Positions 12,089 to 60,505 of a stretch of DNA of 64,000 nucleotides are shown here, piece after piece. Both the position numbers and the translations under genes were made by a program. The DNA lies in assembly GCA_016187125.1 (NCBI GenBank), contig JACPKF010000007.1, positions 835-64,834 of the forward strand, written 5' to 3'. Position 1 is the stretch's first letter; the number at the start of each line of letters is the position of its first letter. The notes beneath the pieces were generated by a model, which searched no databases, was not told where the DNA came from, and worked only from the letters and a program-made list of their open reading frames with translations. Source of the DNA: Candidatus Saccharimonadota bacterium (lineage in GTDB: Bacteria > Patescibacteriota > Saccharimonadia > Saccharimonadales > UBA10212).

Positions 12089-12173
12089 TCATAGCACAAA
12101 CCCCGCATATTTTCATGGCGTTTCGCAATCCGCCGCAGGCGGACTGCTCCACCCAGAAAATTGGCGGGGCAGG
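12089..12173 (+). repeat. 85-nt hairpin element (family F1) with core cgcaatccgccgNaggcggactgctccaccc
   Basis: Outer inverted repeat ccccgcatattttc / gaaaattggcgggg with an inner hairpin tccgcc/ggcgga. A second copy is at 14733-14808. It sits between the two rpoD 3'-end copies. Confidence 0.75.
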
Positions 12174-12829: not shown

Positions 12830-13091
12830 GCAGCCTATTGACGCAAGGCGGGAAAATGCTGTATAAACTGACGCATGAGTTATTTACTCAGTCAGAATCA
12901 ATTGTTTTTTAGCTCCTCACGCGGGGGCTTAGCTTCATTTTGTAAGTAAACATAACTAAATAAAGTCAATCACAAGCCCCCAACAGGGGCTTTTTTAATA
13001 TTTAAATTTAACCCGCCATCCGCCTGAGGTGGATTGCGGGCTTGGCCGCACAAACTTCCAAAGAAGTTTAGGTGGCCGAAGGGAGAAAGAA

Positions 13092-13979
13092 ATGATCGAA
13101 ACTTACCAAAATATTCCGGTATATCACGTTGGCTCCAACGGCTCATATAGTCAAATCAATGCTGAGCGCTTGTTTGCCACAACCAGAGGAATTGAGTTTG
13201 TCCCCCAGCGAACATTTGATGATATTGCCGATGCTTTGGCAGAGAACTCTCGAGCATTGGCAGTGCTTCCCATTGAAAATAATAGCTCTGGCCGTGTGCA
13301 CGAAGTATCGGATATTTTGTTCGAAAGAAGACTAATCGTAGTCGGTGCTAATTGGCTAAGGATTCCTATGCACCTAATAGGTGTAGAAGGTGCTTCGGAA
13401 GAAACTGCGCAGATTGTGGTGTCGCAAAACCAAGCTTTAAAACAATCCAAAATATATATAGATAGTATGGATTTGAAAAGAAAACGCTATGACAGTACTT
13501 CTGAAGCAGCTCAATTTGTCGCCGCGGAAAACGATCCGCGGGTTGTTTGTCTGGGTGGTTTAACATTGGCAAGAGAAGCAGGGCTGCAAGTCATAAGAGA
13601 GCATGTTGCAAATAAAGGCGAAAATAATAAGACTAAATTCTATGTTGTCCGTGGTCGGCAAGGTGATGAAGTTCCGGAAATTCCCAAACCGAATGGTGAC
13701 GATTTAATGGTAACAATGGTGGTCGGCTTGAAAGACCGCAAAGGCTCACTCGGCCACTTCTTAGTCGAACTAGAAGATTCTGACTTACGAACAACTGTAT
13801 CTAACCCAGACCCGGAAGACGATGGCAGCCATCCGGACGAAGGCGACCACCTGTTCTGGATAGATTTTCAGGCAGCAAGTTTGGACGTTAGAAGATTATT
13901 AGAAATAGCAAGAAATAGATCACACACATTTGATTTGTTAGGTGTATATAAGTTGGGCGAAGATCAATTTGCTGAATAG
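13092..13979 (+). CDS. prephenate dehydratase-like protein (PDT domain plus C-terminal regulatory-like domain)
   Basis: GSNGSYSQINAERLF ... ALAVLPIENNSSGRVHEV matches the PDT pattern (G.GS.S, P.ENS..G.V). The start was set at the ATG preceded by gaagggag. Confidence 0.65.
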   Translation: MIETYQNIPVYHVGSNGSYSQINAERLFATTRGIEFVPQRTFDDIADALAENSRALAVLPIENNSSGRVHEVSDILFERRLIVVGANWLRIPMHLIGVEGASEETAQIVVSQNQALKQSKIYIDSMDLKRKRYDSTSEAAQFVAAENDPRVVCLGGLTLAREAGLQVIREHVANKGENNKTKFYVVRGRQGDEVPEIPKPNGDDLMVTMVVGLKDRKGSLGHFLVELEDSDLRTTVSNPDPEDDGSHPDEGDHLFWIDFQAASLDVRRLLEIARNRSHTFDLLGVYKLGEDQFAE

Positions 13980-14077
13980 AGCATCTCCTTATGATGTACT
14001 TGGTATCTACAAACCCAGACAAACCTACCCCAGCGAGTAAGAGCAGTTTTTTACGACCTACATAAACCATTCTAATA

Positions 14078-14107
14078 TTCTTAAGAATAATAGAATAGGA
14101 ATAATTA
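14078..14107. repeat. copy of the ttctaatattcttaagaatattagaa palindrome family (imperfect)
   Basis: cattctaatattcttaagaataatagaata lies about 45 nt upstream of ORF 14153. Other copies are at 48498-48523, 48780-48807 and 51421-51452. Confidence 0.7.
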
Positions 14108-14152
14108 AAGCATAAGTAGTCGCCGAGAAAACCCTGGGTTTATAATTGAAAT

Positions 14153-14692
14153 ATGTCAGAGGATTACACAGGCCCACTTCAGGTAGAAGAAATTCCTTTT
14201 AACCCTTTAAACAAAACGGGTTGGGAAAAAGAAGACGGACAAATAAATGAAGTTGTGATACGAGGAGAGCGAAAGCCAGTTCATCCAACAAATAACCTTC
14301 GAATGATTTTCGGTTTCCATAAAAGGCTAATTAGTGGCGATCGTACCGATCCTTTTATGCAGGTATACAAAGGTGTATTTCAAACAAATAGGCTAGGTGA
14401 AATTTTGGAACACTTTGGTAAAAAGTTTCCTCTTCTATATGCAAGAATGAGTGAGATTAGCGAGCAACATTATCAGAACGCGCAAGATCGGAATAATGCA
14501 TTAGTGAAGCTTGGGCCCAACTCCCCAGAATATGAGACTTTTGTCAAAAAACAAGGGCGCACTGTCGAAGAAGCGGTTGAGCAAGATTACATTTTTTCCA
14601 TGGGCTATGATGGTTTAGCCGAGTCAGCGGTTGAACTTGATCCCGAATATCCAGTAGAAAATCTTCGGGTGCTCACCGGCTATAACGGCTAA
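14153..14692 (+). CDS. hypothetical protein (179 aa)
   Basis: Intact ORF. A TATAAT (14141-14146) lies 6 nt before the ATG. No motif recognised. Confidence 0.45.
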   Translation: MSEDYTGPLQVEEIPFNPLNKTGWEKEDGQINEVVIRGERKPVHPTNNLRMIFGFHKRLISGDRTDPFMQVYKGVFQTNRLGEILEHFGKKFPLLYARMSEISEQHYQNAQDRNNALVKLGPNSPEYETFVKKQGRTVEEAVEQDYIFSMGYDGLAESAVELDPEYPVENLRVLTGYNG

Positions 14693-14732
14693 AATACCTA
14701 CCTACTATCTGTCTGGCGTATAATTTTAAGTA

Positions 14733-14808
14733 ACCCGCAGATCTTTTTGGGGAGTTGCGCAATCCGCCGAAGGCGGACTGCTCCACCCTGAAAAGGTATG
14801 GGGCAAGT
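14733..14808 (+). repeat. second copy of the F1 hairpin element
   Basis: The core gcgcaatccgccgaaggcggactgctccaccc (14757-14788) and flanking inverted repeats align with 12089-12173. Confidence 0.75.
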
Positions 14809-14819
14809 GGCAGAGACTT

Positions 14820-14852
14820 ATGAGTGAAAGAAAGAAATTAGCGATTATAGAC
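14820..14852 (+). pseudogene. displaced duplicate of the polA 5' end (MSERKKLAIID)
   Basis: atg agt gaa aga aag aaa tta gcg att ata gac parallels the real start gtg agc cgt aag aaa ttg gct atc ata gac at 14953. Differences are synonymous, apart from ATG vs GTG at the start codon and one extra codon. Confidence 0.8.
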
Positions 14853-14927
14853 CCCAGCACCAAAATCTTGAAATTCTGCAATAGGGATATTCTCCCTCTT
14901 CTGCATTCAGGATTTGGTGCGGGGCAG
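14853..14927 (+). repeat. 75-nt MITE-like element (family F2), termini cccagcaccaaaatc / gatttggtgcggggcag
   Basis: Inverted termini. The first 20 nt (23 counting the preceding gac) and the last ~20 nt are near-identical to 24539-24611. The centre is variable. Confidence 0.8.
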
Positions 14928-14952
14928 GTCGCGGCTATAGAAAGTTGGCGAA

Positions 14953-17643
14953 GTGAGCCGTAAGAAATTGGCTATCATAGACGGAAAGAGCGTTTTCTAT
15001 AGAGGGTACTACGCCTTGCCGAATTTAAGTACCAAAGACGGAATTCCGACTGGTGGAGTTTATGGTTTCGCGTCTATGAGCCTGGAGCTTATTAAAAAAC
15101 TCAAACCGGATTATGTGGCCGTAGCTTGGGATAAACCCAAAACCAACATTAGAGCCCGGCTAAAAATGTATCCGGAGTATAAGGCCGGCCGCAAACCGGC
15201 GCCGCCGGATTTTTACACCCAAATCCCGATTTTGCATGAACTGCTAGAAGCCTTCGGTTGGCCACTGTATGAACTGGACGACTATGAAGCCGACGATATT
15301 ATGGGCACCTTGGCAGTCCAGGCCCGTAAAAAAAATATCGAAACCCAGCTTATAACCTCCGATCTTGACGCCCTGCAGCTGATCAACGGTCACGTCAAGG
15401 TCTATGCCCTAAAAAAAGGCTTCTCTAATATCGAAGAGTTTCATACCGAGAGTTTTGAAGCCAAATACGGCCTCAAAGCCGAGCAATTTTTGGATCTAAA
15501 ATCTCTAAAAGGTGACAGCTCCGATAATATTCCCGGCGTACCAGGCGTGGGTGAAAAAACAGCTATTGCTCTGCTTCAACAATACAAAACCCTGGACGGA
15601 GTTTACAAAAACTTGGAGTTAGTTAAAGACAGCCTACGCAAAAAACTTGAGGACGGCAAAGACTTAGCCTATTTGAGCAAGCAACTAGCTAAACTTTGGA
15701 CTAATGCGCCGCTTAAATTGAACCTGGAGGCGATGGACACCAGTAAATGTGATACCGACCGTCTGCGGAGTTTGCTGCAGGAACTGGAATTTCGCAGTTT
15801 GCTGAACAACTTGCCGGAGAATATGCGGGTTACACCCGCAGTAACAAGTAATATGCCCCAAGCAAAAAGCGGAGATAAATTAAAGCTCCAGGAACATAAA
15901 TTAATTGATTCAGACGCTAAACTGGCTGAAATCAAGTTGGCTGGCGATAAGATTTTTATTCATTCTCGAGCTGCCGGCCGGCACGGTGCCGACCCGCAGG
16001 TTTTGATTATCGGCACCGACAAAATTTCTTACACGCTTGATTTAACCAAGCTGGACCATAAAAAGGTCCAGCAAGCTATCAGCCATCAGCTAAAGGTTAG
16101 TAGTTCGGTGGTTGGCTATGACTTGAAATCTGATATTAAAGTTTTAAAAAACCTTGGTATCCAACCGCCGCCTGTGGCTCATGACGTCCTGGTAGCGGCC
16201 TTTTTGCTAAATCCCTTAATGCGAGTTCAAACTTTGACCGAACTGGCCACGGTAAATTTGGGCTACGGCGGCACGAGCTTAGAAGATTTGCCAACTGAAG
16301 ATTTTATAGAACGCTCCGCCGAGCTTATGGCAATTCTCATTAAGCTTTACCACGTCCAGCAACACGAATTTGGCGAGGCGCCAACGCTCGAGCGCTTAGC
16401 TAAACAAATCGAATGGCCGCTTATTCCGGTGTTAGCCGATATGGAATACCGCGGTATTAAACTCGACGTTAAGTATCTGAAAAATTTTTCCAAAAAAATA
16501 GAAGATTCGATTAGCGATCTGGAGCAAACCATTTATGGCCACGCCGACTACGAGTTTAATATCAGCTCGCCGGCCCAGCTAGCAGACGTACTATTTACCA
16601 AACTCAATCTTCCCAAGCAGGGAATTAAAAAAGGCAAAACCGGCTTGTCAACGGCGGCCAGCGAGCTGGAAAAATTGCGCGGCCTGCATCCGATTATTGA
16701 TTTAATTAGCCAGTACCGCGAAGTAACTAAGCTCAAAAATACCTACGTTGACGCCTTGCCGGCCTTAGTGGACGCCAGTAGCCGCATTCACACTACTTTT
16801 AATCTGACAGTTGCTCAAACCGGCCGGCTATCGAGTGCCGATCCGAATTTGCAAAATATTCCGGTCCGCACCGAGCTGGGTAAAAATATCCGCACCGCTT
16901 TTATAGCGGAGCGCGGCAATGTTTTTGTCAGTGCCGATTACAGCCAGTTCGAAATAAGGCTAGCGGCCGCCTTTTCGGGCGACCAAGATATGATTGACGC
17001 TTTTAACCAAGATATGGACATTCATGCCGAAACCGCCGCGCTGGTGTTGGGTATCCCGGTTGATAAGGTAACTAGCGAACAGCGTTATGCGGCTAAAGCC
17101 GTCAATTTTGGCATCATGTACGGCCAAGGCCCGCATGGTCTGAGTGTTGGTACGGGTATGGATTACACAGCGGCCCGGGAATTTATTGCCAGATATTTTG
17201 AAGTGCGGCCCAAACTCAAAGAATATATAGATTCGATTCGTAGGGAAGCCGAAGAGCAGGGCTTTGTAGAGACAATCCTAGGCCGCCGCCGGCCAACTCC
17301 GGACGTTAAATCTTCTAACTTCGCGGTCCGCGAGGCTGCTTATCGGGCGGCAATAAACATGCCATTGCAAGGCAGTGCCGCCGATCTCATGAAAATGGCG
17401 ATGGTAGCGGTGAACAAAGAATTTGAGAGCCGCTACCATCGCCATCCTGAGCGGAGCGATAGCAGAGTCGAGGGATGGCCTCGAATGTTACTTCAGATCC
17501 ATGACTCTATACTTGTTGAAACCCCTGAGTCGTTAACTAAACAAGTGGGCGATTTGCTTAAGGACACCATGGAAAACATCCACAAACTACCCGTGAAGTT
17601 GGCAGTAGATATTTCTGTAGGTAAAAATTGGGGCGAACTCTAG
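14953..17643 (+). CDS. polA: DNA polymerase I
   Basis: 896 aa with a 5' nuclease N-terminus, a 3'-5' exo-like domain and pol motifs (DYSQFEIRLAA, KAVNFGIMYG, QIHDS). GTG start. Confidence 0.95.
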   Translation: MSRKKLAIIDGKSVFYRGYYALPNLSTKDGIPTGGVYGFASMSLELIKKLKPDYVAVAWDKPKTNIRARLKMYPEYKAGRKPAPPDFYTQIPILHELLEAFGWPLYELDDYEADDIMGTLAVQARKKNIETQLITSDLDALQLINGHVKVYALKKGFSNIEEFHTESFEAKYGLKAEQFLDLKSLKGDSSDNIPGVPGVGEKTAIALLQQYKTLDGVYKNLELVKDSLRKKLEDGKDLAYLSKQLAKLWTNAPLKLNLEAMDTSKCDTDRLRSLLQELEFRSLLNNLPENMRVTPAVTSNMPQAKSGDKLKLQEHKLIDSDAKLAEIKLAGDKIFIHSRAAGRHGADPQVLIIGTDKISYTLDLTKLDHKKVQQAISHQLKVSSSVVGYDLKSDIKVLKNLGIQPPPVAHDVLVAAFLLNPLMRVQTLTELATVNLGYGGTSLEDLPTEDFIERSAELMAILIKLYHVQQHEFGEAPTLERLAKQIEWPLIPVLADMEYRGIKLDVKYLKNFSKKIEDSISDLEQTIYGHADYEFNISSPAQLADVLFTKLNLPKQGIKKGKTGLSTAASELEKLRGLHPIIDLISQYREVTKLKNTYVDALPALVDASSRIHTTFNLTVAQTGRLSSADPNLQNIPVRTELGKNIRTAFIAERGNVFVSADYSQFEIRLAAAFSGDQDMIDAFNQDMDIHAETAALVLGIPVDKVTSEQRYAAKAVNFGIMYGQGPHGLSVGTGMDYTAAREFIARYFEVRPKLKEYIDSIRREAEEQGFVETILGRRRPTPDVKSSNFAVREAAYRAAINMPLQGSAADLMKMAMVAVNKEFESRYHRHPERSDSRVEGWPRMLLQIHDSILVETPESLTKQVGDLLKDTMENIHKLPVKLAVDISVGKNWGEL
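17442..17478 (+). repeat. in-frame hairpin insert (family F4, CCTGAGC...GTCGARGG) inside polA
   Basis: ccatcctgagcggagcgatagcagagtcgagggatgg is translated as HPERSDSRVEGW just upstream of the QIHDS motif. Related units are at 24445-24508 and 62650-62790. Confidence 0.65.
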
Positions 17644-17646
17644 CTT

Positions 17647-18285
17647 ATGAATAACTCGATTCCTGATCAAAGAGATTTTTGGAATAGAAGACACGGTAAT
17701 GAGCTAGAGGAAGACAGAGACGTTAATCCATTCGCTATCCTTGCTGAGCAAAGTTTTCAACCGCATTCTAAAGTTTTAGATTTGGGCTGTGGAAGGGCAA
17801 GCGATGCGGTTTATTTTGCGAGTAAAGGCCACAGTGTTTTAGCAACTGACTTTTCAGAGACAGTAATCGATCATAACAAAAAAACTTTGAGTAATTCTGG
17901 AGTTGATTTTCAAGTTTTTGATTTACGCCAGTCGCTTCCAGCAGGATCGGAAAGCTTCGACGCCGTTTATTCTAGCCTATCTCTTCATTACTTTGGCGAT
18001 AAAATTACCAAAGGAATCTTTAGTGAGATTCACCGAGTACTCAAGACTGGCGCGACTTTTGCTTTTAGTTGCAAGTCTGTCAACGATCAGCACTACGGCG
18101 AAGGAAGCGAAATAGAAAAGAATGTTTTCATATCCCCTAAAGGCTACCTTAGACATTTCTTTTCTGAGAGTTATGTAAAAGAACTTTTAGCTGATGGCTT
18201 CGAAATTGATCTGCTTGAAGAAGTGCAAGAGGATTATGTGGGAGAGGATTCACATATTATCCACTGTATTGCCCGGAAGTTATAA
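17647..18285 (+). CDS. class I SAM-dependent methyltransferase (cassette between two polA 3' ends)
   Basis: Motif I is VLDLGCGRASDAVYFASKGHSVLATDFS. The ATG lies 3 nt after the polA stop. Confidence 0.85.
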   Translation: MNNSIPDQRDFWNRRHGNELEEDRDVNPFAILAEQSFQPHSKVLDLGCGRASDAVYFASKGHSVLATDFSETVIDHNKKTLSNSGVDFQVFDLRQSLPAGSESFDAVYSSLSLHYFGDKITKGIFSEIHRVLKTGATFAFSCKSVNDQHYGEGSEIEKNVFISPKGYLRHFFSESYVKELLADGFEIDLLEEVQEDYVGEDSHIIHCIARKL

Positions 18286-18291
18286 ATTGTA

Positions 18292-18339
18292 AAACTCAAA
18301 GTCGATATCTCCACCGGCAAAAACTGGGGCGAACTATAA
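18292..18339 (+). pseudogene. displaced duplicate of the polA 3' end (KLKVDISTGKNWGEL*)
   Basis: Parallels 17596-17643 (KLAVDISVGKNWGEL*) with 9 synonymous and 2 replacement codon differences. Confidence 0.85.
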
Positions 18340-18545
18340 ATATCTTCCATTTTGTTTCGGCAAAACGGAAGCCAAAAACCGACGGACATTCGAAAACACT
18401 ATCGAATTTACTAACGCTGTCTGCCGCGCCAAAACAACGCAAGCGGTCCCTCACTTTCTAGGGCAGAGGTTCGGGATTGAGTTTCGGCTGGACTCGCCAG
18501 CCAGCTACCAAATTCATCGGTTTTCTCGAGTCCGGAGACAGAAAG
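18340..18545 (+). repeat. copy C of the A/B/C/D/E structured repeat family
   Basis: ctgccgcgccaaaacaacgcaagcggtccctc ... gagtttcggctggactcgccagccagctaccaaattcatcggttttctcgagtccgg aligns with copies A and B. Confidence 0.65.
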
Positions 18546-18659
18546 ATTCTTTTGTTAGGACGGTTTAACACTAAATCCAGAGAAGATAATCTCTTCGATC
18601 TCTCAGGGTATAATTTGATTAAGGAGCCAGGTATAAATAACGACTTCATTTTGCCGGAA

Positions 18660-19646
18660 ATGCGATCAAGATTTTCTGAAATCCGTTTGGGATTTGAACA
18701 ACTTAAGATTATTGGCCTAGAAACTGGCGATCGTTTTTTTGAAACATATGGCCCAGGTAATTTAATTGAAGGAATGGATCGTCCATACGAAAGATTTCAC
18801 GACTACGAGCTGCTGCTAGTAATTATTCAGGGTATTGACCCAGATAAATACCTGCACATACATAAAGGTACACCTTTTTACTTTTTGGCTTGGTTGGCAT
18901 TTGCAATCAGGGATTACGAAAAGGCGGTATTTTATATGGACTCTGCGCTATCGGAAGACAAAAGAAAAAGCCCAACTGAGCAATTTTCTTCTTGGATACA
19001 AAACCCTGCTGGCAAATTTTTCTGCCTTAATCCAAAAGATCACACTGCGAGGATCATTACACAGCAGTTAAAGGACATACTAGAAAGTCAGTTTACGAGA
19101 TTCAATACAATTTCTAACTTGCCCACTCTGCTTAATGTTGATAGTTGGGTAGGAAATTTCGTACATCCTATGATAAAGGCGGAGAAGTTTCCTTTCGTAA
19201 CTTCAATTTATAGCTATCTTTTAGAGTTTAAAGACCGGCACCAGATGTTAAACCTCAAACCATTACTTGATGGATCTACCGAACCATATACAGTGCATCT
19301 TTTTAAGGGAGGTTTAATATTTGAATCTCTAATGAAACACTATTACGAATCTAGAGCCAAAAAACTCAGTGAATGCCTAAAGAATGAAGATTTTAAAAGG
19401 GACTTCTCTTTGAAATTAGTTGATACTTCAGCTAACAGCCTACGAGAAATACTTGATAAGATTATTGATAATACTGCAGCAACTAGCTTCAATACAACAT
19501 CAAAGCTTCGAAATACTACGGGGCACAAGCTAGTCTGGGATAAAGTCTTTAATCTGCCAGAAAACTACCAGAAACTGTTTGAGCAAGAACTTAACGCAAT
19601 TTTTTTCGTTATCGGGAAGCAAATTGAGAAAGGCCTAGCTATATAA
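18660..19646 (+). CDS. hypothetical protein with a C-terminal HEPN-like RNxxxH motif (AbiD/Abi_2-like signature)
   Basis: KLRNTTGHKLVWD resembles the hRNxxAHHxxLWN signature of Abi_2 HEPN proteins. The start is uncertain: the ORF extends to 18477 but overlaps repeat C. Confidence 0.45.
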   Translation: MRSRFSEIRLGFEQLKIIGLETGDRFFETYGPGNLIEGMDRPYERFHDYELLLVIIQGIDPDKYLHIHKGTPFYFLAWLAFAIRDYEKAVFYMDSALSEDKRKSPTEQFSSWIQNPAGKFFCLNPKDHTARIITQQLKDILESQFTRFNTISNLPTLLNVDSWVGNFVHPMIKAEKFPFVTSIYSYLLEFKDRHQMLNLKPLLDGSTEPYTVHLFKGGLIFESLMKHYYESRAKKLSECLKNEDFKRDFSLKLVDTSANSLREILDKIIDNTAATSFNTTSKLRNTTGHKLVWDKVFNLPENYQKLFEQELNAIFFVIGKQIEKGLAI

Positions 19647-19704
19647 AACTTACAGGATTTTGAATAAATCCAGCGAAAGTATGACCATTGGAGGAATATT
19701 CTCT

Positions 19705-20454
19705 TTATTCCTTTGTGAATGCTTGTTTGGCGATTTGAGGTGCAACAAATAGTTTGATTGTTTGCACGATATCTTCAATTTCGCTTTCCGTCATCTCAAT
19801 TTTCATGCCTTTTTTTATAAGACTTGATTGTTCTGCAGTTTTGACGGCTATTGTAGTGTTTTTCAGAATTGTGGGTTTGTTTAAGAGCATAGGCTTTCCG
19901 CCTACTAGATACTCCATATGATAAAGGTTCATCTTAATATCCTTTTGGGCAACACCTTTGTGATGTTCGATAGTGGATCGAAGATCGAAATACCCATCAA
20001 CTGCGTCAGCTAAAAATTTCTTCAGTTTTCCCAAAATAGCTATTTTCTGAGGTTTTGAAAGATGCCCATCCTTGCCAATCTTCTGTGCCTTCATAGATAT
20101 TTGCTGGCTTATGTATTCGTCGAGCTCGACTTTAGTATGGATATCTCTATCTACCTTCTGAGGCATGGAGCAGAGTTTTCTAATAGCAAGCAACTCATCA
20201 ATAAAATCATTAAAGGAACGAATAATTGAACAGTAGGCATTACGAATTTCATTTTGAGCAGCGATTGAACTATTAATTTGTCTAGTTATTGCTATATTCG
20301 TCGGGCTATTTTCAGAAAGTACTCCTCTCTCGGCATAGCCCCCGCTTTCAATAGAACGTAAAACGCTACGTAAAGACAGAAGTTGTTCATCGAGCCGGCG
20401 ATATAGTTGGTCAACGTAATGGTTAACATTGATATTAATATTCATCCCCCCCAT
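19705..20454 (-). CDS. hypothetical protein with an Rx4H motif (LRSTIEHH)
   Basis: Intact ORF convergent with the previous one. It contains a possible HEPN-type Rx4H motif. Start chosen at an internal Met. Confidence 0.4.
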   Translation of the reverse strand: MGGMNININVNHYVDQLYRRLDEQLLSLRSVLRSIESGGYAERGVLSENSPTNIAITRQINSSIAAQNEIRNAYCSIIRSFNDFIDELLAIRKLCSMPQKVDRDIHTKVELDEYISQQISMKAQKIGKDGHLSKPQKIAILGKLKKFLADAVDGYFDLRSTIEHHKGVAQKDIKMNLYHMEYLVGGKPMLLNKPTILKNTTIAVKTAEQSSLIKKGMKIEMTESEIEDIVQTIKLFVAPQIAKQAFTKE

Positions 20455-20602
20455 TCTATACCTACGGGTCTTTAAATAAATCCGGCAGAATAACACTTTA
20501 TGCGGCAGGTCTGGATTTGGGTTTGGGGAAGTAGCGGCGGAGACAAGGCAGATAGAAAACGGGTAATCCCACCCCGTTGGTACAAGTCCATGTAAAAGCG
20601 TG

Positions 20603-20632
20603 TTGACTTTTCAGGATACTTATTGTAAAAAT
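20603..20632 (+). promoter_or_regulatory. sigma-70-type promoter TTGACT-17-TAAAAA, 8 nt before the ATG
   Basis: TTGACT (20603-20608), 17-nt spacer, a TG-extended A/T-rich -10, then the ATG at 20640. Confidence 0.45.
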
Positions 20633-20639
20633 ATCAATT

Positions 20640-21257
20640 ATGAGCATCTCATCTCCAACGGATATGAAGGTATTTAACCCACGTGATCTTAATGGACAAC
20701 CTCAAACAGCGTTCATTGAAGCAACTAGGCAAGCTCATATGAGGTTTGGAGTATTCCCAGAATTCGTGGGTTTGGCGTTAAGAGGTTCTCTGACCAAGGG
20801 TTATTCAACTGAGGGCTCTGATGTTGACGCAATAATGCTGTGGGACTCATTTTTGTCTAGTCAAAAATTGGCTCTTCAAGAACTTGCGCAAGCTGACTTT
20901 AAGTTCATGGTGGATGGGACTCCAACAGTTAATCTACAAGCTGAAGACATAAATGTTGCAGTAATTTTAGAGGACGTTATGTATTATCCGTCCAAACTCT
21001 CTAATATTTTTCGGCCTGTAACAGGGAAAAAAGTAGATCTTTATAGAAAATACTGGGCAATTCACTTGGCTGGTTTGCCGGAGTCTGAAAGACAAATTAT
21101 AATTCGCGGAATGGCGATAAGCCTTGCAAGGGACGACCTTCTTGGGTGGAGTAAAATGGTTGAAAGAGTGTCATCTGTACCAGGTCCACAAGACTACCGT
21201 AGACATAGACTGGAACTCTGGCTTGGAAGACTAGACCACTTCTTAGCAGAGCAATAG
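20640..21257 (+). CDS. minimal nucleotidyltransferase (MNT/pol-beta superfamily) domain protein
   Basis: LRGSLTKGYSTEGSDVDAIML fits the GS-x10-DxD NTase signature. Confidence 0.65.
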   Translation: MSISSPTDMKVFNPRDLNGQPQTAFIEATRQAHMRFGVFPEFVGLALRGSLTKGYSTEGSDVDAIMLWDSFLSSQKLALQELAQADFKFMVDGTPTVNLQAEDINVAVILEDVMYYPSKLSNIFRPVTGKKVDLYRKYWAIHLAGLPESERQIIIRGMAISLARDDLLGWSKMVERVSSVPGPQDYRRHRLELWLGRLDHFLAEQ

Positions 21258-21355
21258 AGAAATATGTAAGTATAAGCCCGGTAGTAGACCTGCCTAGGGC
21301 GGACTCACTACCGGGTAAGCACCTAGTTTTTGTCGACATCCGTACCTAGGATTTA

Positions 21356-21958
21356 TTAAGGTTTTAGAATTACTCTTTTACTGTGTCCAGGAGAATGAGA
21401 TCTATCAAATCGCGCTATTGGAAACTCTGGAGTTCCGGATACCACTGCATCAGCAAACTCCATTAAATCTGAATCCTCGGGTGTATAACGAAAGGCCGCA
21501 ACCTTTCCTAAGTAGCGACTCACACCAAAGCCACTTGCTCTATGGCTCCTCCTCTCCAAAACGGCATAGCCGGTTTCTCCTAGGCCACGCTCGCCAAGGT
21601 CAGATAAACCAAATAAGTCTCTAATAGCTTCCCCTACCGGCCTTTCGGGCTGGTAGTGAAGCTCTGCTAGGTTAAAGTAGCCTAGCAACACATCTTTATT
21701 GGCGCCCATTGGTGTGAGGTCAACCCTATGGCGACCTACGCTAAAATCAGTATTTAAAACGCCCAGCTTAGGGTACTCTCTACTCCCATCATATTGGGCC
21801 ATAAAATTTGCAACTGAAGCTAGATGACCAACAGCTTGAAAACGCTCGAACAGAGCCCTCTCCGCTTCAGCAATATGAATAACTGGGAATCCCGCGTGGA
21901 ATTCAAGTGGTGGACTTTGAACACTCAAAACTCCTGATCTTTCTATAGTTTTTAGCAT
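21356..21958 (-). CDS. hypothetical protein (200 aa)
   Basis: Intact ORF. No motif recognised. Confidence 0.4.
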   Translation of the reverse strand: MLKTIERSGVLSVQSPPLEFHAGFPVIHIAEAERALFERFQAVGHLASVANFMAQYDGSREYPKLGVLNTDFSVGRHRVDLTPMGANKDVLLGYFNLAELHYQPERPVGEAIRDLFGLSDLGERGLGETGYAVLERRSHRASGFGVSRYLGKVAAFRYTPEDSDLMEFADAVVSGTPEFPIARFDRSHSPGHSKRVILKP

Positions 21959-22083
21959 ACTAACTCCTTTGAATAGATAATAGTCTAAAAAGCTAGGAAC
22001 GCAAGCATAAGCACCTCTGTTTTTTTGTTGAAATGAATGATGAAAATAATAAACAGGATATAATTATGTCCGAGCAGGAGTTT

Positions 22084-22902
22084 ATGAATATCCCAAATTT
22101 GAAGATGAATAACGAGCAGAAGATTCCGCAAGTTGGGCTGGGCCTTTGGATGAACAAAGACGGTGAGGCTTGCAGGCAATCAGTTAAATTCGCGCTGGAA
22201 GCCGGATATCGGCATTTTGATTCGGCTCAGGCTTATGATAATGAGCAATTTTTGGGTGAAGCTATCAAAAAGGGCGGGGTCCCGCGTGAAGAATTGTTTA
22301 TTACCACTAAAATCTTGAATGACAACCAGTGGTGGAACGATATTATTCCCAGTTTCGAAAAATCGCTGGAAAATTTACAGACGGACTACGTCGATTTACT
22401 GTTACTTCATTTTCCGGTCACCGAAACACGTCGGCCGGCTTGGCGCAGAATGGAAGAAATTTATAAATCCGGCCGGGCCAAATCCATCGGCGTTAGCAAT
22501 TATATGATCCATCATCTTGAGGAACTGCTAAAAGAAGGTGATATTAAACCGGCAGTTAACCAAGTTGAACTCCATGTCTTTCTGCAACAGCCAGAGCTAG
22601 TAAAGTTCTGCCAGAAAAACGACATCGTGGTTGAAGCTTATTCGCCGCTGGCTCACGGTAATGGAATGGATGACCCGGTGCTGGCTAGTATTGCCAAAAA
22701 ACACGGAAAATCCACGGCTCAAATTATGATCCGCTGGTGTATCGAGATGGGAACGGTGCCTCTGCCAAAATCGACTCATCAGGGACGTATAAAAGAGAAT
22801 ATTGATATTTTTAATTTTAAGCTTGATAAGCAAGACATGGCCGATATCGCCAAGCTTGACCGCGATTTTAGAACCTGCTGGGATCCAACTCACGTACCAT
22901 GA
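22084..22902 (+). CDS. aldo/keto reductase
   Basis: IPQVGLGLW, GYRHFDSAQAYDNE, LLLLHFP and AYSPLAHG are AKR signatures. The ORF extends to 22033 and the start was chosen by N-terminal length. Confidence 0.8.
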   Translation: MNIPNLKMNNEQKIPQVGLGLWMNKDGEACRQSVKFALEAGYRHFDSAQAYDNEQFLGEAIKKGGVPREELFITTKILNDNQWWNDIIPSFEKSLENLQTDYVDLLLLHFPVTETRRPAWRRMEEIYKSGRAKSIGVSNYMIHHLEELLKEGDIKPAVNQVELHVFLQQPELVKFCQKNDIVVEAYSPLAHGNGMDDPVLASIAKKHGKSTAQIMIRWCIEMGTVPLPKSTHQGRIKENIDIFNFKLDKQDMADIAKLDRDFRTCWDPTHVP

Positions 22903-23804
22903 TGACTACTCAAGATAACCAAAAATTTGTCGAGTTAATTAAGTCCCACGAGCCCACGGCTGGGGATATTGAGTTTGTAGAACATGGCTACGACAACATT
23001 GTGGCGGTTGTTGATCGCCAGAAAGTTTTCCGCTTTCCGCGAACCGAAGTTGATAAGTACCGTCTTTGGTTCGAGGCCGAGCTTTTACAAAAAATGGCTG
23101 GCAAAATACCTAAAACGCCGCGAGTTATTAGGCTCAATCAACGACCATTTTACGCAGTTTATAGCTATCTTCCGGGCAACCATCTAAGCGAGGAAGAGAT
23201 TGGCGGCTTATCTGCTAAAGACCAGGCGGAGATTGGCAATCAGTTAGCCGACTTTATAGCTAGCTTTAATAAACTTATTTCGCCCAGCGAAGTATTATCA
23301 CTGCGCAGCAGTTCAGGCCTAGCTGCCCAACCGGGTGAAGAAACTTGGCCAATTTATTTAAAACGGGTTCTTGGCGATTCTTCTTTCCCCAGCAACCCAA
23401 AAATCGAACAACTAGCTAAAGATTACTATCAAAAATGGCTAAATTTAAAAGACGATTTGCCAATAATTACCGTCCATGACGATTTACATGCCGGAAATTT
23501 ACTTTTTAGCGATGGCCAAATAAGCGGCATCTTTGATTTTGGCAATGCTAGCGCTGGTACGGCTACTCAAGAAATGCGCAACATATTGAGGTTGGGAGAC
23601 GATGTTTTACGAGCCTCAATAAGTCGTTACCAGGACTTAACAGGCCAGACAGTAGATCCGGAAAAAGCCCGTTTCTGGATGATTGTTAACGATCTAGCCT
23701 CTATTTGTCTGCGCCTATTAGACGGCAAAACAGATGCTCCTGGCTTTGCCCGGGCCCAAAAAAATCTAAAAAAATGGGGAGTAATAAGCGATGTGGCGGG
23801 ATAG
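22899..23804 (+). CDS. aminoglycoside/choline-kinase-type phosphotransferase (APH family)
   Basis: HDDLHAGNLLF and GIFDFGNA are the Brenner and DFG-like APH motifs. Confidence 0.75.
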   Translation: MMTTQDNQKFVELIKSHEPTAGDIEFVEHGYDNIVAVVDRQKVFRFPRTEVDKYRLWFEAELLQKMAGKIPKTPRVIRLNQRPFYAVYSYLPGNHLSEEEIGGLSAKDQAEIGNQLADFIASFNKLISPSEVLSLRSSSGLAAQPGEETWPIYLKRVLGDSSFPSNPKIEQLAKDYYQKWLNLKDDLPIITVHDDLHAGNLLFSDGQISGIFDFGNASAGTATQEMRNILRLGDDVLRASISRYQDLTGQTVDPEKARFWMIVNDLASICLRLLDGKTDAPGFARAQKNLKKWGVISDVAG

Positions 23805-24522
23805 AGCTGAAGCTGGGCAGGAACTAGCTGGAGCCCTTATGAAATATAAAGACAGGAACGCGGTGGTTTATGGGCTGCCGCGGGGCGGAGTAGTGGTAGC
23901 GGCCGAAGTTGCCCATGCACTTAACGCCCCTTTGGATCTGATTATTGCTAGAAAAATCGGTCATCCGGCTCACGCGGAATACGCCATCGCCGCCGTAACC
24001 GAGGACTCAGAACCTGTAGTAAATGAAGCAGAAGTTGCTTCGATTGGCAAAGACTGGTTTGAGCGAGCCCTAAAAGAACAAAGAGTCGAGGCCAAGCGCC
24101 GCCGGGAGCTTTATTTAGGTGGTCGCAGACATATTTCACCGAAAGGCAAAATCGCAATCGTGGTTGATGATGGTATAGCTACCGGTTTAACGCTCCAAGC
24201 GGCAATTAAGAGCTTAAAGCCCCGGCGTCCAGCTAAAATTGTGGTGGCCGTGCCAGTGGCGCCGGATGATACAGTAGCTGAAATAGAAGCTGAAGTAGAT
24301 GAGATGGTATGCTTGCATAAGGAAAAAGATTTTTTTGGCGCCGTTGGCAGCTATTATCAATTTTTTGAGCAAGTAGAAGACAGCGAAGTTATTGATCTTC
24401 TGCAAGAGTTTGATACGTACGACCCATTCGATAAAACTCAGGCTCGTCCTGAGCAACGTCGAACGGACGACGAGCTCAGTATCAATCCTGAGCATAGTCG
24501 AAGGATTGAAAATGAGCATTGA
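23791..24522 (+). CDS. phosphoribosyltransferase-family protein
   Basis: The PRPP loop IVVDDGIATGLT is present. The N-terminus RDRAEAGQELA..YGLPRGGVVVA is typical of putative PRTases. The C-terminal ~30 aa are encoded by F4 repeats. Confidence 0.7.
   Translation: MWRDRAEAGQELAGALMKYKDRNAVVYGLPRGGVVVAAEVAHALNAPLDLIIARKIGHPAHAEYAIAAVTEDSEPVVNEAEVASIGKDWFERALKEQRVEAKRRRELYLGGRRHISPKGKIAIVVDDGIATGLTLQAAIKSLKPRRPAKIVVAVPVAPDDTVAEIEAEVDEMVCLHKEKDFFGAVGSYYQFFEQVEDSEVIDLLQEFDTYDPFDKTQARPEQRRTDDELSINPEHSRRIENEH
24445..24508 (+). repeat. two tandem F4 hairpins forming the C-terminal tail of the PRTase
   Basis: The hairpins are cgtcctgagcaacgtcgaacggacg and caatcctgagcatagtcgaaggattg. Confidence 0.65.
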
Positions 24523-24538
24523 AGCCGTAATATTCGAC
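24512..24538 (+). pseudogene. displaced duplicate of the HAD-hydrolase 5' end (MSIEAVIFD)
   Basis: atg agc att gaa gcc gta ata ttc gac overlaps the stop of the upstream gene. It parallels the real start gtg att aaa gcc gtg ata ttt gac at 24630. Confidence 0.8.
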
Positions 24539-24611
24539 CCCAGCACCAAAATCTTGAAGCTCCATAATCTGATTGCAGACTACTTAAGCTCAGGATTTGG
24601 TGCGAGGCAAG
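24539..24611 (+). repeat. second copy of the F2 MITE-like element
   Basis: cccagcaccaaaatcttgaa ... tcaggatttggtgcgaggcaag has the same termini as 14853-14927. Confidence 0.8.
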
Positions 24612-24629
24612 TTGCTTTGGGGTATCGCA

Positions 24630-25202
24630 GTGATTAAAGCCGTGATATTTGACTGCTTCGGTGTCTTAACGAAGGATTGGTGGCGGGAATTTTGTGCCTC
24701 AGTACCGCCCGGCCCGGGTCTGCAAAAAGCCAAAGAGCTCAACCACCTCTATGACGCCGGACTTATAAGCTTGAAAGAATTTGTAGCCGGTGTTGAACAA
24801 GTCACGGGCCGTGAACCCCAACCGATCGAAGACATTTTTGCTAGTCCCGAGCCAATTAAAAACACTACTTTGCTTGAATATATAAAAAGCTTAAAAACTG
24901 GCTACAAGATTGGCATGATTAGCAACGTGGGCACTAATTGGGTGAGGGATTATTTTTTGAGCCCTGAGGAGCAAAGGCTTTTTGACGATATGGTGTTTTC
25001 TTTTGAGGTCGGAACTACCAAACCTGACCCCAGGATTTACGAGCTAGCTACCAAGCGTCTGGGCCTTAAGCCCCAGGACTGCGTTTTTATAGACGATATT
25101 GAAAGATATTGCGAAGCCGCTCGGGCCACAGGCATGAAGGCTATCCTATACAAAGACTTTGAACAGATGAAAACTGAGCTCGATAAGCTTCTTCAGGCCT
25201 GA
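24630..25202 (+). CDS. HAD-superfamily hydrolase (subfamily IA-like)
   Basis: Motif I AVIFDCFGVLT, later SNVG and the DD motif FIDDIERY. GTG start; the ORF track starts at 24597 inside the F2 element. Confidence 0.75.
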   Translation: MIKAVIFDCFGVLTKDWWREFCASVPPGPGLQKAKELNHLYDAGLISLKEFVAGVEQVTGREPQPIEDIFASPEPIKNTTLLEYIKSLKTGYKIGMISNVGTNWVRDYFLSPEEQRLFDDMVFSFEVGTTKPDPRIYELATKRLGLKPQDCVFIDDIERYCEAARATGMKAILYKDFEQMKTELDKLLQA

Positions 25203-29682: not shown

Positions 29683-29917
29683 AGTCGGAAGACCTACTTT
29701 GTAAAGTAGGCAAACATTTCGCAACCTTTAACCGTAAAGGTTGCGCCAAACTCCCGGGCGCAGTAAAAACCAGATTGAATATGCCTCAACGGCGACTGCC
29801 GCGCCGAAACAACGACAAGCGGTCTCGTTCGTTAAACATCGGAGGAACGAGACAAAGTTTCGGTTTTACCCGCCAGCCACCTAGCAAATTCATCTGTTTT
29901 CACTGATGCCCGGACCC
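29683..29917 (+). repeat. copy B (most compact) of the A/B/C/D/E structured repeat family
   Basis: Hairpins cctactttgtaaagtagg, gcaacctttaaccgtaaaggttgc and gtctcgttc...gaacgagac. It ends with aattcatctgttttcactgatgcccggaccc. Confidence 0.7.
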
Positions 29918-48491: not shown

Positions 48492-48497
48492 CCAATT

Positions 48498-48523
48498 TTC
48501 TAATATTCTTAAGAATATTAGAA
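48498..48523. repeat. perfect 26-nt palindrome ttctaatattctt|aagaatattagaa just upstream of the HTH gene
   Basis: It ends 7 nt before the ATG at 48531 and belongs to the 4-copy palindrome family. Confidence 0.8.
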
Positions 48524-48530
48524 TGTAACT

Positions 48531-48809
48531 ATGAAAACTATCTATTCTTCTCAAGATCTAGCAGATATTTTAAAAGGGGGAGCCAATCATCACAGAATTA
48601 ATATCCTTTTTTTGCTTGATAAGCGAGGCAAGCTAACACTCGACGAAGTTGCTGAGGCATTAAGGGCAAATTATAAAACTATTGCTGTCCACCTTAGCCG
48701 CCTACATAAAAGTGGGCTGGTTACCAAGCGCTATAAAGCTTCAGCTGTCGAGCATGATTTAACACCACGTGCTCGCCATATTCTAAATTTCTTAAGAATA
48801 TTAGAATGA
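48531..48809 (+). CDS. small winged-helix (ArsR-like) DNA-binding protein
   Basis: A 92-aa protein with HHRINILFLLDKRGKLTLDEVAEALRANYKTIAVHLSRLHKSGLV, an HTH pattern. The gene is bracketed by two copies of the palindrome. Confidence 0.6.
   Translation: MKTIYSSQDLADILKGGANHHRINILFLLDKRGKLTLDEVAEALRANYKTIAVHLSRLHKSGLVTKRYKASAVEHDLTPRARHILNFLRILE
48780..48807. repeat. imperfect copy of the palindrome spanning the HTH gene stop and the tlyA start
   Basis: attctaaatttcttaagaatattagaat encodes ILNFLRILE* and contains the tlyA ATG (48806). Confidence 0.75.
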
Positions 48810-49531
48810 CGAGTCTTAAAAGGGTAAGATTGGATCAAAGACTAGTGCAGCTTAGATATACTCCGACGCGTAGCCAGGCAGAAAATTATATTCGACTGGG
48901 TTTTGTAGAAGTCAATGAAAAAGCAGTAACTAAAGCCGGCTTTTTTGTTGCGGATAAAGACAAAATTAGATTAACTAACCCTGAGCATTATGTTAGCCGG
49001 GCCGGTTTAAAACTATCCGATGCTAACAAGTATCTAAAAGTAGACTTTAGCAATAAAGTAGTGCTTGATGTAGGTAGCAGCACGGGTGGTTTTACGGACT
49101 ATGCTCTGCACAAGGGGGCCAAAAAAGTTATTGCCGTGGATGTCGGTACCGACCAACTGCATCTAAAACTTCGTGCAGATGAAAGAATTGAGCTTTACGA
49201 AAAAACCGATATTAGAGACTTTAAGCTAAAATCTGCCCCCGACATTATTATGGTGGATGTCTCGTTTATTTCACTAAATTTGATATTACCTCATTTAGCA
49301 CGATTAAGCAGTTCCAAGACTATAATCATAACCTTACTTAAACCCCAATTTGAGGCTGGAAATGAGCAAATTAACAGGGGTATCATCAAAAATGATAGTA
49401 TACGCCGGACTATCCTAAAGGATTTCGAAAATTGGACAAAAAATTTGTTCAATATTGTCGGCAAAGTTGATAGTAATATTACCGGCTCCAAAGGCAATCG
49501 GGAGCGTTTTTACTTACTTAAAAAACTATAA
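48806..49531 (+). CDS. tlyA: TlyA-family rRNA 2'-O-methyltransferase
   Basis: S4-like N-terminus RLDQRLVQLRYTPTRSQAENYI and FtsJ motif VLDVGSSTGGFTDYALHKGAKKVIAVDVG. Confidence 0.85.
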   Translation: MTSLKRVRLDQRLVQLRYTPTRSQAENYIRLGFVEVNEKAVTKAGFFVADKDKIRLTNPEHYVSRAGLKLSDANKYLKVDFSNKVVLDVGSSTGGFTDYALHKGAKKVIAVDVGTDQLHLKLRADERIELYEKTDIRDFKLKSAPDIIMVDVSFISLNLILPHLARLSSSKTIIITLLKPQFEAGNEQINRGIIKNDSIRRTILKDFENWTKNLFNIVGKVDSNITGSKGNRERFYLLKKL

Positions 49532-58721: not shown

Positions 58722-58844
58722 CTACGTCATTCCCGTTCACCGTTCACCGTGCACCGTTCACCGTTAATACATGGTCAACGGTCAATGGCAAATGTAAGGT
58801 AAATGGTAGATGGCTAATTGTAAATGCCTCCGAAGGAGGATCTT
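58722..58844 (+). repeat. pilM-pilN spacer: (ttcaccg)n / (cggtaaa-like)n heptad hairpin plus an SD-sequestering hairpin
   Basis: tcccgttcaccgttcaccgtgcaccgttcaccgtta ... caacggtcaatggcaaatgtaaggtaaatggtagatgg, then cctcc-gaa-ggagg (58827-58839). It is homologous to 63863-63997. Confidence 0.75.
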
Positions 58845-60238: not shown

Positions 60239-60505
60239 ATGAAACACAAGGACATGGCAGTTTTAATTACGGTGGCTGTTATCACTGGCTTTATTTCCTT
60301 GATAATGGCCAGCATTTTCTTTAGCGTACCCCAAACCCGAAGCTCCAAAGTACCAGTGGTCGACACTATTACCACGTCCTTGCCTGATATTAAAAATGAG
60401 CCTGTTTATCAATCTATTTTTAACTCCAAGGCGCTCGATCCGGCCCAGCCGGTCCAAATCGGCAATACTCAAAACAACACGCCCTTCAACAGCCGTGGAC
60501 GCTAA
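60239..60505 (+). CDS. small membrane-anchored protein (88 aa) in the pilus operon
   Basis: Single TM helix AVLITVAVITGFISLIMASIFF. The ATG abuts the previous stop. Confidence 0.45.
   Translation: MKHKDMAVLITVAVITGFISLIMASIFFSVPQTRSSKVPVVDTITTSLPDIKNEPVYQSIFNSKALDPAQPVQIGNTQNNTPFNSRGR

Follow-up and report, generated by a model that had tools for sequence, protein, structure and literature searches.

Loci at which a gene takes on a new 3' end while the old one is kept downstream have been described for the effector-immunity loci of Rhs, contact-dependent inhibition (CDI) and type VI secretion systems (T6SS), as C-terminal displacement arrays, in Kirchberger et al. 2017 (PMC5361080) and in Jackson et al. 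2009 as cited there. Homology-facilitated illegitimate recombination was proposed for the arrays of displaced 3' ends in Vibrio T6SS and Rhs loci (PMC5361080). A comparable arrangement was analysed here in a stretch of 64,000 nucleotides (nt) of DNA from a Candidatus Saccharimonadota bacterium (contig JACPKF010000007.1 of assembly GCA_016187125.1), hereafter the window. In it, a gene for a class I S-adenosylmethionine (SAM)-dependent methyltransferase lies directly behind polA, the gene for DNA polymerase I, and is followed by a second, displaced version of the polA end. The live polA end is referred to as END1 and the displaced one as END2 or the relic; numbers preceded by L are labels of the related loci and contigs that were compared with the window.

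As in the Rhs, CDI and T6SS arrays, incoming DNA at this locus appears to share the conserved upstream part of the target and to replace its 3' end, the old 3' end being shifted downstream and kept, and successive events appear to build an array in which the newest unit is proximal. Unlike in those systems, the anchor is an essential housekeeping gene and no polymorphic toxin, only the last 18-64 nt are displaced, without a functional domain, and the genes gained are unrelated small enzyme genes (methyltransferase, RibD_C-like, Nudix, aldo-keto reductase (AKR) and a toxin-antitoxin pair). The relic apparently keeps the stop/start junction for the next gene and not an immunity gene.

Illegitimate recombination in transformable bacteria is the subject of de Vries & Wackernagel 2002, Prudhomme et al. 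2002 and Meier & Wackernagel 2003, as they are referenced in PMC5361080 (see also PMC3240628). The locus resembles laboratory homology-facilitated illegitimate recombination in combining one homologous anchor with one variable illegitimate join, and in belonging to a competent group of organisms (PMC10633639). Unlike the marker-selected laboratory events, the footprints described here are natural, old, present in several lineages and recurrent at one gene end; in comparison with those events, anchor length and junction microhomology are unreadable from the present sequences.

Two site-specific systems were also compared. Like integron cassettes (attI/attC, IntI), the inserts behind polA are putatively promoter-less single open reading frames (ORFs) in one orientation at a fixed point, presumably expressed from upstream, with a repeat marking the 3' end of each unit and an order that varies between genomes. 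Unlike in integrons, no IntI was found in the Pfam-scanned ORFs of the window (64 kb of genome), L001, L003 and L082, or in the lists for L081-L083, and unlike attC, the polA-end repeat is a piece of coding sequence without hairpin potential, of variable length, and one cargo is cut. Site-specific recombination also places genomic islands in the 3' ends of tRNA or protein genes, an example being PAISt at the 3' end of bacA (PMC4057263). As at such islands, incoming DNA appears to have restored the 3' end of the target, with a partial copy of that end remaining beyond the insert as a direct repeat. Unlike at such islands, the insert is 0.64 kb long, holds the methyltransferase ORF only and carries no integrase, the copies share only an 11-nt identical block, and the lengths of the flanking copies differ between events.

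A methyltransferase gene between two versions of the polA end

polA is intact in the window (Table 1). Its product carries the Pfam domains 5_3_exonuc_N, 5_3_exonuc and DNA_pol_A, the last being completed by END1 to model position 381/381, and at least 80 homologues were recovered from Saccharimonadales. The initial annotation had placed a polA end at 17596-17643, a methyltransferase start 3 nt further on and a second polA end at 18292-18339, with 9 silent and 2 replacement codon differences between the two ends and a repeat of an A-E family directly after the second. All of this was borne out by the sequence and the ORF list. On a codon-by-codon recount, eight sense codons differed silently and the stop codon (TAG/TAA) made up the ninth silent difference; the replacements were A/K and V/T. 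An element of approximately 200 nt belonging to the repeat family begins at 18340.

The relic matched END1 at 14/16 positions (15 amino acids (aa) and the stop). The best match in 100 shuffles of the window, read in six frames, was 9/16, and chance is therefore excluded for the second polA end. The same pair was returned by a repeat search of the window (D18; 17604-17642 and 18300-18338, 77% nt identity). Both copies contain an 11-nt identical block, TGGGGCGAACT, and polA itself is complete; direct repeats with an identical core and a restored target gene, as seen at integrase-borne islands, are present. The last ~17 nt of END1 (AATTGGGGnGAACTCTAG) are common only to other methyltransferase-bearing genomes. 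The second end occupies 18292-18339, and homology extends back to ~18280, across the methyltransferase stop. An alignment with the live end of polA in L001 puts the beginning of the relic at ~18280, with TTATAAATT and GTAAAACTC separated by a 4-nt deletion; in this alignment the relic overlaps the last methyltransferase codon and supplies the methyltransferase stop codon. Read-through of that stop codon into the relic was considered and rejected, as L084 and L082 have the relic in the +1 frame, unlike the window, where it is in frame. The hairpin 3' of the relic, which a terminator scan also flagged and listed on the minus strand, is probably the original hairpin 3' of polA.

Table 1. Coordinates of features at the polA locus of the window.
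Feature	Position	Strand	Basis
polA (DNA polymerase I, 896 aa), intact, cargo recipient	14953-17643	+	ORF list; Pfam
END1, live polA end KLAVDISVGKNWGEL, stop TAG	17596-17643	+	sequence, alignment
Spacer CTT, 3 nt, from polA stop TAG to methyltransferase start ATG	17644-17646	+	junction conserved in 4 genomes
Methyltransferase ORF, 212 aa, class I SAM-dependent	17647-18285	+	Pfam; homologues
END2 relic, ...(Y K L. V) KLKVDISTGKNWGEL, stop TAA, non-coding in the window	18280-18339	+	alignment
Hairpin, 11-bp stem, 4 nt 3' of relic stop	18344-18371	+	folding -6.8 kcal/mol, z = -2.6
Repeat C, ~200-nt repeated non-coding element abutting the relic, apparently structured	18340-18540	+	repeat family D4
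Lineage-specific low-GC segment, four ORFs (389, 263, 205 and 200 aa), between relic and AKR gene	18477-21958		
AKR gene	22033-22902	+	Pfam Aldo_ket_red 9.7e-60

The polA-end version that matches the relatives was found to be the second copy and not the live end. At amino acid level the relic (15 aa) equals the end of the live polA gene of L001; the two differ at 8 nt, each change being synonymous or stop-for-stop. The relic scored 77 on alignment to the live polA end of L001, 73 to that of L003, 67 to that of L166 and 66 to that of L081, but only 42 to END1 of the same window. The live ends of the four methyltransferase-bearing genomes share AATTGGGGnnAnCTCTAG followed by (C/T)TTATG, which is absent from the relics and from relatives lacking the methyltransferase. 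Synteny agreed with this assignment at two points. The live polA stop of L165 (TGGGGTGAACTATAA) is followed 3 nt on by a hairpin and a GCCAAAC motif, the architecture seen at the window relic (TGGGGCGAACTATAA) and its hairpin. In L085 the live polA end overlaps an AKR start by ATGA (…AACTGGGGCGAACTATGATCCCA), and in L084 the relic behind the methyltransferase makes the same AKR junction (…AACTGGGGCGAACTATGATACCA), and the pair serves as a comparison of an unoccupied with an occupied site, an analogue of an empty site. On the basis of the amino acid identity to L001, the better scores to live ends of relatives and the junctions in L165 and L085/L084, the relic is best read as the ancestral polA end. 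An AKR homologue lies directly against the relic in L084 and against the live end of polA in L085; the AKR gene of the window is therefore likely to have once adjoined polA.

Differences between END1 and the relic were in excess at third codon positions (10/15, p = 0.0085; in L084 12/16, p = 0.0008), which is compatible with two once-functional alleles. The excess is no proof of two imported alleles, as a live copy under selection gives the same bias.

The product of the inserted gene was confirmed as a class I methyltransferase by Pfam (Methyltransf_25, 3.7e-18, 66.4 bits against a cut-off of 27; Methyltransf_11, 1e-17, 65 bits against a cut-off of 21.2; residues 43-140), and it is full length relative to its homologues. 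It contains the SAM-binding motif I LDLGCGRASD (residues 44-53) and an acidic residue after strand 2 within ATD (66-68); L44, L46, G47, C48, G49, D53 and A66-T67-D68 were invariant across 14 homologues. No NCBIfam model that would name the enzyme reached its cut-off, the best being MduS at 96 bits against 380, and matches in the PDB were generic small-molecule methyltransferases (E >= 1e-10). An exact protein look-up of the sequence returned no record. In a collection of 5.8 billion proteins the three closest homologues were 92% (partial), 84% and 78% identical, all of them encoded 3 nt behind a polA gene, and the next were at most 48% identical.

Recurrence in independent assemblies and other cargo in relatives

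The sequence of polA, 3-nt gap and methyltransferase was also found in L081 (a metagenome-assembled genome at NCBI), in L082/L083 (two JGI samples) and in L084 (a Logan assembly), and the junction CTCTAG(C/T)TTATGA(A/G)TAA was conserved in the window, L081, L082 and L084. A relic follows the methyltransferase directly in L084 (KLRVDISTGKNWGEL and stop) and in L082 (K(F)KVDISTGKNWGEL and stop), and the L081 contig stops within the methyltransferase gene. The window relic was conserved behind the methyltransferase at 44/48 nt in L084 and 37/48 nt in L082. In a four-way alignment, the loci were homologous from polA through the methyltransferase to the stop codon of the relic and unrelated beyond it. 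As the same arrangement stands in independent assemblies, assembly chimerism is excluded; the second copy was also found to be no part of an unrelated gene. As the arrangement is common to the window, L082 and L084, the first insertion is old. In L082 the two polA-end copies are identical over 33-35 nt, which shows that the copies interact, by recombination or conversion, within a genome.

The initial annotation had proposed a comparison of the methyltransferase with its genome. The gene had a GC content of 0.399 (0.343 at third codon positions, GC3) against 0.475 (GC3 0.513) for polA. Over its first 357 nt it was 95.5% identical to L081 at nt level, with a third-position identity of 0.95, against a background between the same two loci of 75% for argS, 69% for dnaG-sigma70 and ~73% for polA. 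The tract of high identity to L081 begins at ~17627, in the last six polA codons, and extends to the end of the L081 contig. Against L082 the methyltransferase was 81% identical, equal to the polA background (~79%). At the level of the polA protein, the window, L081 and L001 are about equally far apart (73-75% aa identity), yet L001 has a different gene behind polA. Given the identity to L081 set against its flanks, and a composition richer in AT than that of polA, the methyltransferase gene is foreign and has recently been exchanged between lineages. Its identity to L082 at the polA background indicates that the first insertion predates the split of these lineages, and the similarity to L081 above background points to a later exchange of alleles. 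Synteny, the discordance of the methyltransferase and the match of the relic to relatives together support the proposal that the gene is cargo inserted between two polA-end versions; the term cassette, in the sense of a self-contained mobile unit, goes beyond what the locus demonstrates.

These comparisons bear on the reading that the polA end was duplicated in situ, with an unrelated insertion of the methyltransferase gene, or that the join is a chimera made in assembly. Replication errors can produce direct repeats on both sides of an insert, and the third-position bias between the copies is compatible with duplication followed by divergence. This reading is nevertheless largely refuted, and we regard it as highly improbable: the arrangement is present in four independent assemblies (NCBI, two JGI samples, Logan), so it is no chimera, every difference between the relic and the L001 live end is synonymous, END1 has features common only to methyltransferase-bearing genomes, the composition and identity of the methyltransferase gene are discordant with its flanks, and the same anatomy is found with other cargo in L001, L003 and L082.

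The relatives of the window polA are Saccharimonadales (Saccharibacteria, Patescibacteria), L001 being the nearest reference genome (~75% polA protein identity). polA was present and syntenic in more than 160 Saccharimonadales loci. Upstream, synteny with dnaG, sigma-70 and AAA_18 kinase genes is conserved, and downstream that with HAD hydrolase, fpg, holA and rpsT genes. The stretch between polA and HAD/fpg differed in almost every genome. The gene touching the polA stop was MazG-like, Nudix, AKR, methyltransferase, RibD_C-like or an unknown gene, often in an ATGA stop/start overlap. Methyltransferase homologues with 43-47% identity lie directly behind polA, with no relic, in L002, L094 and the P0005 contig; given these relic-free arrangements, the methyltransferase cargo probably came from a relative in which the gene already adjoined polA.

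Arrays with other cargo were found in three relatives. In L001, polA is followed by a RibD_C-like gene with an ATGA-overlap start, a 27-nt relic, three genes (a GTGA-overlapped membrane ORF, a 214-aa ORF and an AKR gene) and a 21-nt relic. The C-terminus of the RibD_C-like product, …SGKNWGGL and stop, is the relic, and the ATG of the second relic (GACTGGGGCGAACTATGA) is the start of an HD-domain gene. In L003, polA is followed by an unknown gene, a Nudix gene and a 27-nt relic, in whose ATGA the next gene starts. The L003 Nudix C-terminus, …TSQNWGEL and stop, is the relic. This protein matches the L085 Nudix protein up to …GI(Q/K)EY, after which the relic replaces the natural LELVNEN and stop, so that the cargo is shortened by 7 codons at the junction, which reads as the signature of an illegitimate join. 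In L082, the methyltransferase gene is followed by a 47-nt relic, a repeat of the candidate phyla radiation (CPR) type, an 18-nt relic (…GACTGGGGCAAACTATAA), a PhD-PIN toxin-antitoxin pair and a 24-nt relic (GGCAAGAATCGGGGCCAGCTTTAA). Relic lengths were thus about 18, 21, 24, 27, 47 and 60 nt, with variable junctions.

A search for duplicated polA ends in 80 reference loci at a threshold of at least 9/16 aa, which was too strict, returned none; the shorter relics were detected only by nucleotide and regular-expression scans. The regular-expression scan returned 11 copies downstream of polA on the plus strand (8 non-redundant). Elsewhere, in 2.1 Mb, which is twice the sequence, it returned one upstream copy (a contig-end repeat) and one on the minus strand. 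An interpretation of the relic as a genome-wide ribosome-binding motif was rejected, as the motif occurs only at polA and downstream of polA. A metagenome scan by C-terminal polA alignment, in which the most conserved peptides were used, gave only distant relatives (at most 61% identity) among the matches listed, and added contig L118. A protein search with the polA C-terminus gave only partial proteins with at most 72% identity among the matches listed; three contexts were examined and had no relic, L165 providing the hairpin comparison given above.

Contig L118 (MWWK01014361.1, 1-1061) is a metagenome contig of 1061 nt whose first and last 131 nt are identical, giving a circular-looking unit of 930 nt. 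The unit holds the terminal ~320 nt of a polA gene with the 70 nt that lie behind it, and also an unrelated 163-aa ORF; it is a long, tandemly arranged relic of a polA end or else a circle that has been excised.

The 5' end of polA is also duplicated (window 14820-14990). A relic start, ATG AGT GAA AGA AAG AAA TTA GCG ATT ATA GAC (MSERKKLAIID), which resembles MAERKKLAIID of relatives, is followed by an insert of ~100 nt (CCCAGCACCAAAATCTTGAA...TCAGGATTTGGTGCGGGGCAGGTCGC...) and then, at 14953, by the GTG of the live start (MSRKKLAIIDGK). This insert recurs, with an identical left junction (GAC|CCCAGC), at the 5' end of the HAD hydrolase gene (24512-24660), which has a relic ATG at 24512 (MSIEAVIFD) and a live GTG at 24630 (VIKAVIFD). 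The frame in which both relic ORFs cross the insert is conserved (PSTKILK..N.....L.SGFGA.QVA), and each ORF ends in a TAA located 5-8 nt beyond the live GTG, which would suit reinitiation. Only two copies of the insert were found in the window and none in any fetched locus or in viral contigs. Further towards its 3' end, polA has an in-frame extra segment at 17385-17487 (…RYHRHPERSDSRVEGWPRM…); the loop in which it lies varies among relatives and has low complexity there. This segment is 95-100% identical to L081, with flanking polA at about 70-75%, and represents a patch exchanged on its own or else a small mobile insert in frame.

Possible routes of insertion and expression

Homology-facilitated illegitimate recombination anchored in polA, that is, C-terminal displacement, was judged the best model, with a probability somewhat above even. 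Donor DNA from a diverged relative with the methyltransferase gene already directly behind polA would enter the lineage. One donor end would pair homologously with the conserved 3' part of polA, and the other would join illegitimately ~64 nt before the resident polA stop. The product would be a polA gene with an imported END1, the methyltransferase gene, the last ~60 nt of the resident gene as a non-coding relic, and the old polA hairpin. Joins would survive selection only where the following gene still has an intact resident stop/start junction, and the relic would be kept for the stop/start junction and ribosome-binding context it carries for the gene after polA; in L084, L001 and L003 the ATGA or GTGA of the relic is the start of the next gene. 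In view of its 96% identity to L081, the methyltransferase allele would later have been swapped again, through ordinary homologous recombination across lineages, and repeated like events in relatives would have stacked other small enzyme genes behind polA, each with a relic of its own.

Several features of such displacement were found: a homologous anchor, a retained ancestral 3' end, variable junctions with cut cargo, and foreign DNA. The 3' end of polA is a mosaic, 17385-17487 being 95-100% L081-like and 17479-17595 being 87% L082-like. Cultured Saccharibacteria have been shown to be naturally competent and to integrate linear DNA by homologous recombination (PMC10633639). In the window itself, a likeness to type IV pilus genes was noted for ORFs at 57681-63862, by inspection of their N-termini only.

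Several observations weigh against one-sided recombination. Neither a donor nor microhomology at the original junction can be traced, the closest relic-free methyltransferase neighbours being only 43-47% identical, and homology-facilitated illegitimate recombination is rare in experiments (PMC5361080). The third-position excess is also expected after in-situ duplication and long divergence, and so does not prove the import of END1. Every cargo gene stops no more than a few codons from its natural end, and in two of them the relic is joined on in frame; such neatness exceeds what random illegitimate joining predicts, and a strong selective filter would be needed. The identical left junction at the 5' ends of polA and the HAD gene is likewise hard to reconcile with random illegitimate joins. 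No enrichment of relics was found across ~160 Saccharimonadales loci, relics being present only in the sub-clade of the window. Finally, every relic keeps the same core of ~15-18 nt (AAYTGGGGCGARCTRTRR), as a recombination site would, and the 96% tract starts sharply at AATTGGGG inside END1, fitting a crossover at the core.

The last two points lead to a site-specific cassette system, in which the last ~18 nt of polA (AAYTGGGGCGARCTRTGA) would be an attachment site for a recombinase encoded elsewhere. Small promoter-less genes bearing a mimic of the site at their 3' end would be inserted, and perhaps excised, with the newest adjoining polA, in an integron-like manner with the polA promoter driving expression. 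Besides the core common to all relics, the identical block in END1 and relic, and the start of the L081 tract exactly at the core, such a system would account for arrays of up to three units in one orientation, for cargo ORFs that are single, small, promoter-less and end at or in the relic, for a polA-adjacent gene that varies among genomes as if drawn from a shared pool, and for L118 as a circular-looking unit with a polA 3' fragment. We consider it unlikely. Pfam scans of ~37 distinct ORFs (27 in the window, the rest in L001, L003 and L082, including ORFs beside the arrays) revealed no recombinase family, and the precomputed Pfam lists for L081-L083 contained none either. Folding of the relic was no better than that of shuffles on either strand (z = +1.07, +0.68), END1 gave z = +1.93, and neither contained a hairpin or palindrome; nothing is conserved 3' of the stop codon among relic copies, so the presumed site would end exactly at a coding boundary. 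The repeat is not constant in length (18 to ~64 nt, and 320 nt in L118), the junction cost the L003 cargo the 7 codons at its end, most Saccharimonadales have no relics, and viral contigs contained neither a polA-end mimic nor the polA 5' insert.

Two specific forms of attachment site were tried and rejected: an attC-like hairpin, as folding was no better than in shuffles, and a tRNA-type att site, as ARAGORN found no tRNA or tmRNA. The fullest version of a site-specific system, in which an undescribed recombinase acting at the polA stop region stacks, exchanges and translationally couples genes that carry polA-end mimics, is quite unlikely in our assessment; the duplicated 5' ends of polA and the HAD gene, with their shared ~100-nt insert, could be a second face of such machinery.

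The 33-35 nt identity between the L082 copies is relevant to another route, RecA-dependent integration of the Campbell type. Here the cargo would be looped out between polA-end copies as a circle with one copy, and re-inserted in a relative by a single crossover. Direct polA-end repeats flanking the cargo, potentially hybrid, are the exact outcome of a single crossover, the L082 identity indicates that copies recombine or convert within a genome, L118 may be such a circle, and competence is established in Saccharibacteria (PMC10633639). On the other hand, repeats of 18-60 nt that are 70-85% identical between lineages are very short for RecA, transforming DNA enters as linear single strands, and L118 is equally explicable as an assembly loop over a tandem repeat. 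The route would moreover explain the spread of a cargo-plus-relic unit and not its first formation, and on balance we hold it to be improbable. One-sided recombination anchored in polA is the preferred reading.

Expression of the inserted gene was considered under the same reading. A scan of 14000-22200 for promoter-like sites gave 12, against 13.6 +/- 3.5 in shuffles, and hence no excess. The TAG-YTT-ATG junction is conserved in four lineages, and the only stable hairpin lies 3' of the relic. From the conserved 3-nt gap, the lack of promoter excess and the position of the old hairpin, we infer as the simplest reading that the methyltransferase gene has no promoter of its own, is co-transcribed with polA and is translated by termination-reinitiation. 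It would be read from the polA transcript, with ribosomes probably stopping at the polA TAG and restarting 3 nt later, and the CTT spacer is proposed as the termination-reinitiation junction. The orientation and tight spacing of the cargo ORFs also fit expression from an upstream promoter, promoter-like sites being no commoner than in shuffles.

Further features of the window and meaning for gene gain

The repeat abutting the relic belongs to a family of ~200-nt elements (A-E; D4) with plus-strand copies at 1783-1965, 18340-18525 and 29722-29905, in which the hairpin at a shared 5' position differs from copy to copy and conserved blocks come after it. For three copies, RNAalifold predicted 47 pairs, 14 of them with compensatory changes. 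Rfam returned no match for the whole window at gathering thresholds or for 14000-25000 at E <= 1. The element may be an undescribed structured RNA or leader.

The low-GC segment between the relic and the AKR gene (GC 0.36-0.41; 0.406) contains ORFs that had no tblastn match in 80 loci and were absent from all fetched relatives; they had no credible match in Pfam, NCBIfam, PADLOC or PHROG. The single NCBIfam match, of the 205-aa ORF (AraC-type), was far below cut-off. On the upstream side of polA, the stretch 13029-14692, between the AAA_18 kinase gene and polA, holds a prephenate dehydratase gene and a 179-aa ORF and had no counterpart in 80 reference loci; by this comparison it appears to be a second lineage-specific insertion.

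A near-perfect palindrome of 28-34 bp, (C)CATTCTAATATTCTTAAGAATATTAGAATGG, has four good copies in the window (14067-14100, 48495-48528, 48778-48811 and 51421-51454; D1, I4-I9), one of which closely precedes the 179-aa ORF beside polA. Its form suggests an operator or another kind of protein-binding site. A direct repeat of 74 nt with 77% identity (D6; 12098-12171 and 14732-14805), containing the hairpin TCCGCC(G/A)(C/A)AGGCGGA, is located just upstream of the AAA_18 kinase gene and of the polA relic start, and may be a shared promoter or leader element.

Patescibacteria have tiny genomes with few recognisable mobile elements and were recently found to be naturally competent, and their routes of gene gain are largely unknown. 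Serial polA-end relics provide a readable record of single gene-gain events in these organisms, marking the start and end of each insert and the order of arrival, and they show incoming genes plugged into an essential operon without expression signals of their own. Should a recombinase be involved, the locus would represent a new gene-capture system, and if that system acts on polA ends, it would amount to integron-like gene capture without attC hairpins in ultra-small bacteria. If one-sided recombination is the true route, the locus would be natural evidence, from multiple lineages, of a rare laboratory process shaping gene content, and any conserved gene with a stop/start overlap would be predicted to act as a landing pad.

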